Positions 21,503-38,091 are shown, numbered from the stretch's first letter. The stretch is DNA of 39,329 nucleotides from Craspedostauros australis (GCA_030167865.1 JALAGF010003472.1:1-39329); one strand, 5' to 3'. Notes: generated from the sequence alone by a model not told the origin. Translations and numbers: made by a program.

Positions 21503-21575
21503 TGGACACTGCCGGAATCGAACCGGCGACCTTCCGCATGCAAAGCGGACGCTCTGCCAACTGAGCTAAGCGCCC
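21503..21575 (-). tRNA. tRNA-Ala(UGC)
   Basis: GGGCGCT TA GCTC AGTTGGCA GAGC G TCCGC TT-TGC-AT GCGGA AGGTC GCCGG TTCGATT CCGGC AGTGTCC A. Full cloverleaf with the G3:U70 Ala determinant and a downstream TTTTT terminator. Confidence 0.97.
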
Positions 21576-21801
21576 TTGGTGCCTGAGACGGGACAATTTA
21601 TATTATCGATAATGAAAGTGGTCCATCACGAAATCCCACAAACATCAACCACCAACGGAAATCAACATCCCCTCCCGTTTCCTGCCTCCGACACAGTTGT
21701 TGTATCTGTACGAGTGCGCTGTGAACAGACACTGCTCGTCCTCGGTCGTCACACAGATTGGATCTCACATACCGGAGACAGACAGGAACAAACGCAAGAA
21801 G

Positions 21802-30883: not shown

Positions 30884-31671
30884 TGTTTCCGTACTTGAGA
30901 TGAATATGGAGACAGAGCAAAGAAGGGTGGGGAGCAGTTCGACCGACAATGGTGTTGTTTGAAGCTCTGCGATTGTTGTGAAGAGATTGTCAGTGATGGT
31001 TGGTTGTGGGAAATCCTGACTGTGATACGCTGTTCCATAGCGGTAAATATCTTATAAACTGTGTTTGTTCATCAGCACAATGTGTTTGTATAATAGATAT
31101 AATATAACCATATTGCCGTGGCTTACAAAGATCTCACATTTTCGTCAGATGCGTCTGAATGGCTGGTTGTGCCCGTCCGTTCTCTTCAAGCGACATCTGC
31201 AAATCATGCCTGCAACCCACATCTTCCAATTTCTGTTGGTATTGTGCGAAATGAAACTTCCGTATCGGAGTTCACGATTCCGTGGCATGACATCGTCGCG
31301 TGCCAGCGGAGCCTGTTGTGTTCAGGAAGCATTCAGCTTGAGGATCAATACTTGCAGAGCAGAGAATGGACAGAAAGCACATATCAGAACTACGAGAACG
31401 ACACTGTTGTACCATGAAGTAAAGATGATTTGAATGAAACTTTCTGCACAGATCTCGTGCGACAACGATGGTAACTGTAACTTACAAAACTTCATTGCTT
31501 GAGTCCTTGCCGTGACTCTCCAGAGAGTATGCTCGGGCGTGATGGCGGCAAAGGAAGGTGTAGAGTTAAAGGACAAGATCTCAACGCTGGAGGGGCATCA
31601 TGGTTTCCACGCAAGCAATAAACATAAGCTATTTGAACTAATGATTTCGTTTTCAAGGCACCAAGAATTGA

Positions 31672-31753: not shown

Positions 31754-32290
31754 TTTTGCCCCGTTTGTCAACGAAAATAGTCTCTGCGAGCGGCCATTTC
31801 TTTTAGTGCTGGTCTGATTAATTCCAGACCAAAGTATTGTATTCTATGGTACAGTACGAGTACACACTTGTGCCATGACAACGACGACACTCTTGGATTC
31901 CATACTTTAGTTCTTCTCTTTTTGGTGCTGTGAGTTTGATTTGTGTGTCCCACAATTGTTTCTCCTGCTCCTGGTTGCTCTACTTCGACATACCCGCAAT
32001 CCGAAGGCCACCGCCTCCGCAAGACCATCTCTTGATCATTCGCATCAATTGTCAACACGAGGACAGCACAAGTGCTCTTAGCGCGACGTAGGGAGTCTAT
32101 TTCTTACAGTATGCTATCATTCTATGTGATTATCATGCGCAATGATGGAGTAGAGTTATCCACTCGGATCGAAGACCCCCAAATTCACGCTCGATGGCTG
32201 CGCATTCTCCATCTTCGTAATGTGATGGGCCGATGTGCACACGCGCATTTCTTCCTGCTGTCGATGTCGAAAGCACAGGGCACACACATA

Positions 32291-34607: not shown

Positions 34608-35783
34608 CTAGTAGATGCCCGTCGACTGTCCCCACTCGGTGGATGCAATGTAGTTCTCCAATGCACCGCCCAAGTACACCGATGCGGCGCTCACCAACAG
34701 TACAATCCACAACGGTGTCGACTTCGTCTTCTTGTTCACGCTCAGCACGAATGGAACCGTGTACGAAAAGAAACCGAAGCATGAGGTCATCAGATGCAAG
34801 GCCTGGATGCCGGTGGATTGGATGCGGGATGCATTCCTCACGATGTTGAATGACTGGACGAAGTACAGCCATGGCCAGTGGCTGCCGAAGGCGCTTCCCA
34901 CGGCATGCGCACCAAGGCCGGATGCCAATCCTTGGCATGAGAACACGATGGGCTTCACTGACTGGTTCCATCCCAAGATGAATGGAACCAACGCCACCAG
35001 CACGGTCGGGAGGAAGGCCAGCATGACCTTCTTGGTGTTCGTTGGCGTGATGGCAGCAGCCAGGCCACTCATGCCGCCGCACAATCCCAGGCAGAAGACG
35101 AAGTTCGTCCATCCAGATGATGATTCCGATTTGGGCAGGTACACCCATCCGTCGAATTCGTGACCGACGATTTCTGCGAAGTTGCCGATGATTGTGATGA
35201 TGGCACCGATGGCCCAGAAGATGTCGGAGAGCGTTTGGTCTCGGCCTGTCCAAATCGCTGGCTGCTTTTTGTTCTGCGCGTTGTCGTGGTCGTTGGTCTC
35301 CTTGGCAGCAGCAGTGGCGTCGTTGTCCTTCTTGAGATCCCTCAAGGCCGGTCGCAGGATGGAAACCATGGAGAGCGGCGTGAGGCTGTTGAAGAGATGG
35401 ACCGCACACAATATGGGCCACAACGGTTCTGACATCCGTTCATCGAGTCTGGATTCCATGAGTGGCTCCAGTTGATAGGAGATGGCGAGCGATGCCAGGA
35501 AGCACGTGGCGATGGACTGGAACCATTCCAGGGTGAGCGCGGAGCTTCTGAGCGTCTGGACGGCCCCGTAGATGTAGAATGTCGCCAGGATGGGGACGAC
35601 GACCTCCAAAGACAGCAGATTTCGGAGGCCATCATGCAGCTGGGCATCATTCTGCTTGTCGTTGATGTGCATGGTGGTACCGATGGTGGTTGCCGTGATG
35701 AGGATGATGGCAGAGTTCATCTTTGCTGTGGTCGACATGGATGTTGTTGTTGTTGCTGGTGGTGTAGAGGAGGTGGCTTTCAT
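34608..35783 (-). CDS. Hypothetical multi-pass membrane protein (up to 391 aa)
   Basis: Intact long ORF with coding-like codon use and many hydrophobic segments. Start uncertain (several in-frame ATGs). Family not recognised. Confidence 0.72.
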   Translation of the reverse strand: MKATSSTPPATTTTSMSTTAKMNSAIILITATTIGTTMHINDKQNDAQLHDGLRNLLSLEVVVPILATFYIYGAVQTLRSSALTLEWFQSIATCFLASLAISYQLEPLMESRLDERMSEPLWPILCAVHLFNSLTPLSMVSILRPALRDLKKDNDATAAAKETNDHDNAQNKKQPAIWTGRDQTLSDIFWAIGAIITIIGNFAEIVGHEFDGWVYLPKSESSSGWTNFVFCLGLCGGMSGLAAAITPTNTKKVMLAFLPTVLVALVPFILGWNQSVKPIVFSCQGLASGLGAHAVGSAFGSHWPWLYFVQSFNIVRNASRIQSTGIQALHLMTSCFGFFSYTVPFVLSVNKKTKSTPLWIVLLVSAASVYLGGALENYIASTEWGQSTGIY

Positions 35784-36144
35784 GGTTGTAGAACTGAGGT
35801 TGTCGGTTCGTCCTGTTCTGTGCTGTACTATTATCGTTTGTGTGTTGCTTTGTTGGTGTTGCTTTGTTGCTTGTTTCGATTTGTGAGCATTCCGGAGGCA
35901 TCGCAGTTCAACAGGCCCGACTTCTCTCCCATCACATCCATCCCCTCAATTGCCCATAGGGTTGACGTGGTAAATCATGACCGTGCTGTGTGCACGAGTG
36001 CGTATGCATGCTCGGTATTGGATTCCCAAGACCACACCGCAAAGATCGCCACGACTTCTGCGTTCGCGTCAATGCCAGCATGTTCTCACAAAGAATGAAC
36101 CTGTGCGGGGAGTTCGTTGTCTGCAGCGTCGCTGGTTTGGTTGT

Positions 36145-36237
36145 TGTTAAAATAGCGCGCTGCGGAACCGAACCACGGAGCCAGTCCACGCCCTGCATGA
36201 ACACAAGAAATTAACGCTTATAACCCATGTCGCGACA
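36145..36237 (-). repeat. 3' LTR of the TRIM (93 bp)
   Basis: Identical to 36409-36501 except C36168 vs T36432 (plus-strand bases); adjacent to the PPT. Confidence 0.92.
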
Positions 36238-36245
36238 CCCTCCCT
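36238..36245 (-). other. Polypurine tract of the TRIM
   Basis: AGGGAGGG on the minus strand immediately precedes the TG of the 3' LTR. Confidence 0.8.
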
Positions 36246-36395
36246 AATTCTTGGATTCATGCCCTTGAGCCCCCCTATCATGAGGACCCCCCACACTCTA
36301 TCTTTATACTGCCGCTGTAGGCAGTCGGCAAGTTTCGGGTGTTTCTGTGTGTTTTCGTAGCAGGGGTGGGTACCAGCCGACGGAATCGAACCTTA

Positions 36396-36408
36396 GGCCA
36401 CGCTACCA
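36396..36408 (-). other. Primer-binding site, probably complementary to the initiator tRNA-Met 3' end
   Basis: Plus strand GGCCACGCTACCA is a tRNA-like 3' end with CCA, discriminator A and U72, as in eukaryotic initiator tRNAs ending ..GCUACCA. Confidence 0.8.
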
Positions 36409-36501
36409 TGTTAAAATAGCGCGCTGCGGAATCGAACCACGGAGCCAGTCCACGCCCTGCATGAACACAAGAAATTAACGCTTATAACCCATGTCGCGAC
36501 A
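36409..36501 (-). repeat. 5' LTR of the TRIM (93 bp)
   Basis: Minus strand reads TGTCGCGACATGGGTTATAAG...GGTTCGATTCC...TATTTTAACA, adjacent to the PBS. Confidence 0.92.
36428..36438 (-). promoter_or_regulatory. Pol III B-box consensus (GGTTCGATTCC) inside the 5' LTR
   Basis: Identical to the B-box of both tRNA-Ala genes in this window. The 3' LTR copy (36164-36174) reads GGTTCGGTTCC. Function not demonstrated. Confidence 0.6.
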
Positions 36502-37215
36502 GGTTGTGACCAACATGGCGAGGAGTTGCGCACAGTCTTTCCTCCCAACATCAATGCTTCATGCTGTGTCGTGATTCGTTGGTGTGACTGACACGTCGCC
36601 AATCTGCCTTGAACCGGTGGTTGCCTGGCACGGTGCCGTACATAGACTCGCGCCAACTAGTGCTCTGTCTATGTGTGTACTCGTATTGCCTGTTCCTGTC
36701 ATCACGAGGAACCTTAGCCAATACGAAGTGTACGGTATACTCTTGGCGTCGTGTACTGATAGTCTATCTCAGAGGCGGTACATCCGTGTCGAGTGCAGTA
36801 CGAGTAGGTAGAGTCGGCTGCTATGTGGCGTATTAGATGTGCTCGTACAGATATCAGGAGCATCGCTAACCCACCCTCTCCCCCCCCCAGCCTCGGATAC
36901 CGTATTGCAGCACATCTCAGGACAAAGATGAGACACACAGCACAGCAATAGGTTGAAGAGCGTGTCGAGTAGACGAAGGTGGCAGAGATGACTGAGGATT
37001 TGCTGGAGTCGGGACCCAATGAATGGGAAAGGAATGTGATGCGGCAATCGAAAGGCTTGGTAAAGACGTGCCAAAAGGAACAGGCAACCTACCCTTCGAA
37101 TGCATAGCATGATAAGATAGATAGTATTAGTACGAAGATGATGGCTTCGCTCACTCCACCATCGAGCAAAAGTGAAGCAGAGATTGTGCCTGGAGTTGTG
37201 TAATTCAACAAAAAG

Positions 37216-37288
37216 TGGACATTGCCGGAATCGAACCGGCGACCTTATGCATGCTAAGCATACGCGCTGCCAACTGCGCCAAACGCCC
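37216..37288 (-). tRNA. tRNA-Ala(AGC)
   Basis: GGGCGTT TG GCGC AGTTGGCA GCGC G TATGC TT-AGC-AT GCATA AGGTC GCCGG TTCGATT CCGGC AATGTCC A. G3:U70 pair; downstream TTTTT. Confidence 0.97.
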
Positions 37289-38091
37289 ACGAGCTGTTGT
37301 TGCTTGGTGACAATTCAAAATGCTCCAGAGTTCATTTACCTATCATGAAATCTCTCATTTTCTTTCTACATTCAGAAGCTTGCTGTCTGTTGCTTTGCAA
37401 CCTCTCCAACATCCTCCTCCTCATCGCTTTTGTCTGGTCTTGCATTGGACGATTTCGGAAAAGTAACAAGATGCTCTTCGTATTAGCAGCTCGTACATAT
37501 TGTAGTATTCCTATCATCGAAGGCATGGCGCTTCTGCCGTTCCTGTAGACAACGAGCTTCATCGTCCAGTGATGCAGGACTTCCACGTGACCTTGCAGAG
37601 ACAGTGGAGCAAAGCAATCCTCTTTACCAACACAACGTATTGATAAACTGAACTGTAGAGCAGCCAAGCTGGAAGAGGAACAGAGGCGCAATCTATGGCA
37701 CATGGCTCGTGTCATCCTGTCTCTCTAGCTTCGATCACAGAATTCTCCAATCAATCAAGCGAACTCTGGGAGCGTCTGTTTGTCGCGAGCAGTTTTGCCT
37801 GTTGTTCTCGCCACATGAGCGACTGCCTGTGACAACAAGAACAAAACAGGATTCGGTCGCCTTGGCGCCAACGCCGGAGAGGCATCAACTCACAAAGAGA
37901 GACACAGACGCAAAGTACCAAGGAAGAGAGAAAGAGAGAGAGCGAGCGACGATTTGGCGACCCTAACCAGCAACAAGACGAGTTGACCAACTTGAAGTGA
38001 AGCCACTGTGACTTTGTGGCCATCCTGCAACACAGTTACAAGTCAGACAGTACACACACGTACGCCAGAGGAGCAACCCGAACGAAGCAAC

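Follow-up and report, generated by a model that had tools for sequence, protein, structure and literature searches.

This locus raises the question of whether the long terminal repeat (LTR) of a very small diatom retrotransposon contains a promoter and terminator for RNA polymerase III (Pol III) that derive from a tRNA gene. A preliminary description of the sequence had proposed a TRIM whose LTR carries a tRNA-like Pol III module, composed of a TATA-like box, a mini acceptor/T-arm, a B-box and a run of four T. The DNA analysed is one stretch of 39,329 nucleotides, here called the window, and the motifs on which that proposal was built are all present on its minus strand, namely TTATAAG (36487-36481), GGGCGTG (from 36457), GGTTCGATTCC (36438-36428), AGCGCGCTA and TTTT (36416-36413). 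The host is a pennate diatom. The window holds genes for TAF2, a mitochondrial carrier and a cap-trimethylase domain, which point to a eukaryote; the carrier has a best match of 66%, its best named relatives come from the raphid pennate diatoms Cylindrotheca (61%) and Nitzschia inconspicua (58%), and Pseudo-nitzschia, Mayamaea and Fragilariopsis follow. A scan for bacterial promoters and terminators, which is not applicable to a eukaryote, found nothing.

The element is a complete TRIM of 357 bp, located at 36145-36501 on the minus strand. Its 5' LTR (36409-36501) and 3' LTR (36145-36237) are direct repeats of 93 nt with TGT...ACA termini (TG..CA type), and they are identical at 92/93 positions (99% in the direct-repeat search), the sole difference being an A versus a G within box B of the 3' LTR. 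The hexamer GGTTGT, read from the sequence of the plus strand, is found beside the 5' LTR (36502-36507) and again beside the 3' LTR (36139-36144). This target-site duplication is 6 bp long as judged from one copy, and it may instead be 5 bp plus one chance base. The primer-binding site TGGTAGCGTGGCC (36396-36408, minus strand) lies immediately 3' of the terminal CA of the 5' LTR and, from its letters, would correspond to the 3' end of the initiator tRNA-Met, the gene of which lies outside the window. The polypurine tract AAGAATTAGGGAGGG (36238-36252, minus strand) lies immediately 5' of the 3' LTR. The internal part measures 171 nt, so that the unique sequence of the element amounts to about 264 nt, and no ATG ORF inside the element is longer than 44 aa. 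An LTR pair with TG...CA ends, a primer site, a purine tract, a target-site duplication, small size and the lack of coding capacity together define a TRIM, and in this respect the preliminary description was right. There is no second copy within the window.

Further copies were sought in a public sequencing run (X1), which was used as contigs and whose RNA nature is a guess only. The X1 contigs cover 36208-36501 with 0-2 differences. One of them, 200 nt long, spans 36303-36501 without any difference inside the LTR, and alternative contigs cover the internal part at 36245-36332. Another contig departs from the window sequence exactly at 36502 and continues with 255 unlike bases, which confirms the LTR boundary and places the element in at least one other flank context. 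A family consensus with the variant GGTTCGGTTCC in box B had been named beforehand as a point that would count against the module; the 200-nt contig carries the canonical GGTTCGATTCC, and the G found in the 3' LTR appears to be a change private to the window copy. The whole LTR is invariant in X1, box B and surroundings alike, and the family is therefore too uniform to give a sign of selective conservation of box B. The word depth of X1 is about 100-400 on the element and 16 on another contig, values that stand for neither copy number nor expression level, and X1 cover is absent from 35600-36148, 36515-36697 and 37186-37400.

Searches outside the host returned no relative. A metagenome scan with a 27-nt seed from the 5' part of the LTR gave 0 matches, two scans of prokaryote-genome contigs gave 0 and 0, and viral contigs gave 0. 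A gapped metagenome scan for box B followed at a distance by TGGTAGCGTGG gave 23 loci, all of which were dropped as unrelated, none showing the LTR; ARAGORN called tRNA genes in 13/23, mostly in clusters of prokaryote or phage type, and none in the other 10/23. Four near-identical marine metagenome stretches among them (L001, L002, L005 and L008; GC 0.56) match the gapped pattern and have no tRNA gene according to ARAGORN. L001, the sole one of the four examined further, has no direct repeat of at least 30 nt and has its ORFs on the wrong strand; all four appear unrelated to the TRIM.

Some other features of the neighbourhood were recorded. A 425-nt X1 contig matches the intergenic stretch 36718-37136 with 37 substitutions and 5 gaps, in the same run in which the TRIM contigs are near-identical, and this stretch could belong to another repeat family or correspond to an orthologous region in a relative. 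The segments 36686-36706 and 37067-37087 form a weak inverted repeat of 21 nt. A short tandem of 14-nt units (TGTGTGTTGCTTTG-like) occupies 35839-35869, and a further copy of the unit is at 37384-37397.

The resemblance to tRNA genes is strongest at box B. The 11-mer GGTTCGATTCC of the 5' LTR (36428-36438, minus strand) is identical to box B in both tRNA-Ala genes of the window, exactly as had been claimed for the T-loop. A second exact box B is located in the internal region (36382-36392, minus strand), separated by 16 nt from the 5' LTR and by 3 nt from the primer site, and no T-stem surrounds it. Both tRNA-Ala genes contain the 12-mer GGTTCGATTCCG, which is found again in the LTR and in the internal region. 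The corresponding box B of the 3' LTR (36174-36164) reads GGTTCGGTTCC and is one base off GGTTCGATTCC. For GGTTCGANTCC, 4 exact sites are present in the window, two in the tRNA-Ala genes and two in the TRIM, versus 0.10 expected, and 0/100 shuffles reached 4; the frequency of box B in the window is thus far above chance.

The position of the T-run also agrees with that in tRNA genes. The TTTT of the 5' LTR (36413-36416, minus strand) starts 11 nt past box B, with AGCGCGCTA in between, and the tRNA-Ser gene at 31754 has the same 11 nt between its box B and TTTT, a parallel that had already been pointed out; in the tRNA-Ala genes, 12 nt separate box B and TTTTT. If these 11 nt of the LTR are read as tRNA, they divide into 3 nt of T-stem, 7 nt of 'acceptor' and a single 'discriminator' nucleotide. 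The T4 of the 5' LTR and its twin in the 3' LTR (36152-36149) are the only runs of at least four T on the sense strand of the element. This lack of other T-runs is weak evidence, because by our own estimate only about 0.7 would be expected anyway, and it was rejected as an argument for Pol III. On the minus strand of 36382-36408, the internal box B, 11 nt and then CCCA (GTCGGCTGGTA-CCCA) resemble the CCA 3' end of a mature tRNA, not a gene with a T-run, and TGGTA, which is present at the start of the primer site, is present again there. The idea that the internal box B is an extended primer site was rejected after a hand check, as its reverse complement cannot make a T-arm beside the acceptor strand.

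Upstream of box B, the order of motifs is the same in each LTR: TTATAAG, then 23 nt, GGGCGTG and the box B/T-loop 11-mer. In the 5' LTR, the TATA-like TTATAAG is at 36481-36487 (minus strand; LTR positions 15-21), which puts it some 28 nt ahead of the proposed start. The preliminary description could find no clean A-box. A box-A-type motif, TGGCTCCGTGG (36437-36447, minus strand), had been overlooked; it occurs in both LTRs and fits TRGCY-N3-YGG, the definition TRGCY...YGG being that given for box A of Helenus elements in section 3.5 of the article (Kojima, 2024; PMC10886601). This motif class is not rare, with 8 occurrences in the window versus 7.28 expected, and the terminal GG of the motif is the first GG of box B, so that the two overlap by 2 nt. 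The distance from the start of box A to the start of box B is 9 nt within the LTR and 55 nt to the internal box B, compared with 44 nt in the tRNA-Ala genes and 53 nt in the class-II tRNA-Ser gene of the host; a tRNA-like spacing is therefore missing inside the LTR. At 9 nt, the two boxes are too close together to be bound at once by TFIIIC. Since a tRNA-like spacing comes only via the internal box B, the promoter would be complete solely in the context of the 5' LTR.

One further signal sets the LTR apart from the tRNA genes of this host. The LTR has no copy of GGCACCAAG, a motif that precedes each of the three tRNA genes of the host, either exactly or with one mismatch. Sites of this type are at 21575-21583 (minus), 31657-31665 (plus) and 37303-37311 (minus). 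The window contains just two exact matches, each immediately 5' of a tRNA gene and on the same strand, one overlapping the first base of tRNA-Ala-TGC and the other 6 nt before tRNA-Ser; the copy with one mismatch, GTCACCAAG, is 14 nt before tRNA-Ala-AGC. The motif may be an upstream element of diatom tRNA genes.

As a tRNA, the LTR is a fragment. The 3' half of the D-stem and the anticodon arm are missing from it, and the cloverleaf of a tRNA gene or pseudogene, with D, anticodon and T arms, is not found. The Rfam tRNA model has no match in the LTR, either at the gathering score or at E values up to 10, and ARAGORN at default settings reports in the window the three true tRNA genes only. A local alignment of the LTR and the internal part with the three host tRNAs shares nothing except the 12-mer GGTTCGATTCCG. 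With relaxed settings (-ps80), ARAGORN proposes an 89-nt 'tRNA-Lys(ctt)', which was rejected because its acceptor stem borrows 4 flank bases that differ between the two LTRs. Rfam scans, whether of the window or of the region alone, gave no match to a 5S rRNA type of promoter (box A, IE, box C). Weak Rfam hits to mir-5366, SNORD44, HCV_SL1412 and a piece of cyano_tmRNA (E = 0.03-0.05) are far under the gathering scores and were discarded, the cyano_tmRNA piece reflecting only the T-arm-like motif and the stem between the LTR end and the primer site.

The RNA fold imagined for the LTR fares no better. The 45-nt minihelix stretch has a folding energy of -11.7 kcal/mol with z = +0.80, and 156/200 shuffles are as stable, so the claimed mini acceptor/T-arm does not exceed chance. 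Its acceptor-like stem of 6 bp holds two G-U pairs and has to compete with stronger long-range pairings.

Our best reading, which we put forward as tentative, is that the element is a young, non-coding diatom TRIM in which the 3' half of the LTR is a cut-down tRNA-gene module that serves, or served until recently, as a candidate Pol III unit; it would be a truncated, Helenus-like 'TRIMp3'. This reading is preferred because there are two exact box B motifs in 264 nt, a T-run at the offset of tRNA genes, a G-rich start with a TATA-like box some 28 nt ahead of it and a layout like that of Helenus. Of the tRNA-like Pol III module first proposed, box B, the spacing of the T4 and the TATA-like box are supported, and the RNA fold is not.

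In such a unit, TFIIIC would bind box B, where the LTR copy overlaps the box-A-type motif and the internal copy, 55 nt from that motif, comes near the 53 nt of the host tRNA-Ser gene. TFIIIB would be placed on the TATA-like box, and Pol III would start near 36460-36457. Some transcripts may end at the T4 of the 5' LTR and give an RNA of about 45-48 nt; read-through to the T4 of the 3' LTR would give an RNA of about 310 nt, with an R of about 45 nt and a U5 of 4 nt. This longer RNA would pair its R/U5 with the primer site and the leader as a hairpin, and it would be reverse transcribed in trans by an autonomous element, probably of Copia type, from a tRNA primer on TGGTAGCGTGGCC. The Pol III reading is compatible with a terminator placed before the primer site, since Cassandra, as described in the article text, starts and ends inside its 5S part with an R of 18 bp (Kojima, 2024; PMC10886601).

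Several observations stand against the Pol III reading. No tRNA model matches the LTR, which lacks the D-stem 3' half and the anticodon arm. The overlap of boxes A and B is unlike the host genes, the box-A class is common, the minihelix is at chance level, and GGCACCAAG is absent from the LTR. A TATA-like box with TCA at about +25 is compatible with a core promoter for Pol II as well. The judgement is made from one copy, whose 3' LTR has already lost the consensus A, and the uniform family in X1 shows no selective conservation of box B.

The closest known elements are those of Helenus, described as TRIMs with tRNA-derived sequence in their LTRs ('TRIMp3') from fungi, six animal phyla and Selaginella (Kojima, 2024; PMC10886601). 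The preliminary description had tentatively named Ajax as the tRNA-carrying counterpart, in oomycetes; according to the text of the same article, Ajax is a 5S-bearing TRIM of two nemerteans, and the tRNA-bearing group is Helenus. The element of the diatom shares with Helenus the primer site, purine tract and target duplication of a TRIM, a length of 357 bp within the range of 311-1263 bp stated there, a T-run ahead of the primer site and possibly the box-A-type motif TRGCY...YGG. Compared by eye with the Helenus consensus sequences of Data S1, it also has the arrangement of the small fungal LTRs, in which a tRNA-like part with box B (GGTTC...) and about 11 nt is followed by the T-run, a short tail and CA, and, like some fungal Helenus, it has an internal part that starts with TGGTAGCG.

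There are also differences. Whereas the small fungal Helenus LTRs presented by Kojima (2024) hold a full-length tRNA-like part, the LTR here keeps a tRNA fragment only, which tRNA models do not see; it is thus not recognisably tRNA-like as a whole, and its box B (GGTTC...) agrees with the Helenus pattern. The LTR is 93 nt long, versus 106-284 nt in the fungal rows of Table S1 that were compared, the box-A-type motif overlaps box B, and the target-site duplication is 6 bp, versus 4-5 bp as given for Helenus. A second box B is located past the primer site, and the host is a diatom. The LTR and the primer site also show complementarity, at the 3' end of the former, a feature that the article text reports as missing from Helenus (Kojima, 2024). 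The use of Pol III by Helenus is itself untested by Kojima's own statement, and the main text of the article (PMC10886601) does not contain 'diatom', 'stramenopil' or 'oomycet'. A literature search joining diatom, LTR retrotransposon, tRNA-like and RNA polymerase III found nothing, and for 'TRIMp3' the literature searched contained no relevant paper besides Kojima (2024).

Other small elements resemble the TRIM in part. Cassandra of plants and Ajax of nemerteans, as the article presents them, have the promoter and terminator of a small-RNA gene in both LTRs, as is proposed here; the short R predicted here is like that of Cassandra (18 bp), and the retention of only part of the source gene, here a tRNA gene, is like Ajax, which retains only the promoter part of its source (Kojima, 2024; PMC10886601). 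Their source is the 5S gene with box A, IE and box C, unlike the tRNA type found here. The tRNA-derived SINEs (SINE2) are likewise short and non-coding, with the logic of A and B boxes and a terminating T-run. The diatom element differs from them in lacking a LINE-type tail and in possessing LTRs, primer site and purine tract, which imply that it depends on an LTR retrotransposon and not on a LINE.

The main rival to the Pol III reading, doubtful in our judgement and still to be taken seriously, is that the element is an ordinary Pol II TRIM. Its U5 would be an 'anti-primer-site' that mimics the 3' end of a tRNA, with acceptor strand and discriminator A, and its T-loop-like motifs would be leader, packaging or primer-contact elements taken from an autonomous partner and not promoters. 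A U5 that pairs with the primer site must resemble the 3' end of a tRNA, because the primer site is itself complementary to such an end. The folding results speak for this rival. A 101-nt hairpin (36360-36460, minus strand) joins the 3' half of the LTR to the primer site and to some 36 nt of leader through 31 Watson-Crick and 7 G-U pairs, with an energy of -45.3 kcal/mol. It is more stable than expected (z = -2.74; 1/200 shuffles as stable), shuffles of its arms reach its value in 4/1500 and 3/1500 cases, and only 15/15692 windows of 101 nt across the whole stretch are as stable. The antisense strand of the region reaches only -35.3 kcal/mol, the advantage of 10 kcal/mol for the sense strand being due to the 7 G-U pairs, and the 3' LTR with its flank reaches -31.2 kcal/mol. 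Two pairings within the hairpin, that of GCGCGCUA from the LTR end with UAGCGUG from the primer site and that of GCAGGGCGUGG with CCACCCCUGC, are each stronger than the 6-bp acceptor stem. The hairpin starts at 36460, where a TATA-like box plus 25-28 nt predicts the start.

Retroviruses and LTR retrotransposons are known for stems between U5, leader and primer site, and the pairing of R/U5 here with the primer site and the leader behind it is of this kind; unlike such stems elsewhere, the paired arm carries the box B of the host. It is this arm that the Pol II rival fails to explain, for if pairing were all that mattered, the second arm would be expected to carry the complement GGAATCGAACC. 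It has the exact box-B 12-mer instead, and the two copies of box B pair with each other at only 8/11 positions. The exact tRNA-gene distance of the T-run is also left unexplained, and no recognisable poly(A) signal is present in the element, although diatom poly(A) signals are poorly defined. Several fungal Helenus internal parts provide a parallel for leader elements of this sort. In Data S1, those of Helenus-2_PGr-I, Helenus-3_PSt-I and LTR-1_PTrit-I, for example, hold, by eye, 1-3 T-arm-like motifs of the GGGTTCAATCC type, which are comparable to the internal box B here and pass without remark in sections 3 and 4 of the article, and one internal part with such motifs is reported there as homologous to a Copia leader (Kojima, 2024; PMC10886601).

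An improbable alternative is that the motifs are sites for TFIIIC only. Yeast 'extra TFIIIC' sites recruit TFIIIC without productive Pol III transcription. By analogy, the element would use TFIIIC as a shield against silencing or as a boundary, or it would be a decaying relic of the Helenus type. This would account for three box-B sites within 357 bp, for the lack of a usable A-B spacing inside the LTR and for the internal copy without a T-stem, which points to a motif acting at the level of DNA over one of RNA structure. It offers no account of the TATA-like box, of the box-A-type motif or of the tRNA-gene distance at which the T-run lies, and the concept is carried over from yeast.

Less probable again is that the LTR is a Pol III gene for a short RNA, a T-arm/acceptor minihelix of about 45 nt whose end, ...GCGCGCUA plus CCA, would anneal to the element's own primer site, either as a self-primer or as a decoy that regulates priming; the second box B would then be the missing half of a split promoter, functional in the context of the 5' LTR alone. 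The LTR segment does end in ...GCGCGCUA just before the T-run, and this end makes 7 consecutive pairs with positions 4-10 of the primer site, or 10 with the added CCA (hand count). Kojima sought such complementarity in Helenus as well and, according to the article text, the tRNA-like part there shows none to the primer site, so that it is no general by-product of the architecture (Kojima, 2024; PMC10886601). Against the short RNA stand a minihelix that folds no better than shuffles, a C-A mismatch in its T-stem and a primer site that begins with TGG and extends over 13 nt, as for a host tRNA; pairing in cis within the hairpin accounts for the same complementarity. Self-priming is known from elements such as Tf1 of fission yeast. 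In contrast to Tf1-type priming, the primer site here starts with TGG, as for the CCA 3' end of a tRNA, and the complementary stretch is located 7 nt upstream of the primer site and not in the first bases of the RNA. Finally, chance resemblance in an otherwise ordinary TRIM is very unlikely, given two independent exact 11-mers in about 264 nt where about 0.1 are expected in 39 kb on both strands and a T-run at the exact tRNA-gene offset, even though the stems and the box-A class are at chance level and there is a single genomic copy to judge from.

If the Pol II rival were true, the element would be a clear case of a U5 that owes its likeness to the 3' end of a tRNA to its pairing with the primer site. 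Under the Pol III reading, if it is true, the element would represent the known TRIMp3/Helenus kind in a new host lineage, and the range of TRIMp3 would widen from fungi, animals and plants to diatoms (stramenopiles). An LTR of 93 nt with a partial tRNA would then suffice, and the element would be a very compact case of an LTR element with a Pol III terminator ahead of its own primer site. Three TFIIIC-type sites would enter the genome with every copy, which bears on the annotation of tRNA genes and pseudogenes and on studies of diatom chromatin, and diatom genetics would gain in the LTR a compact candidate unit of Pol III promoter and terminator.
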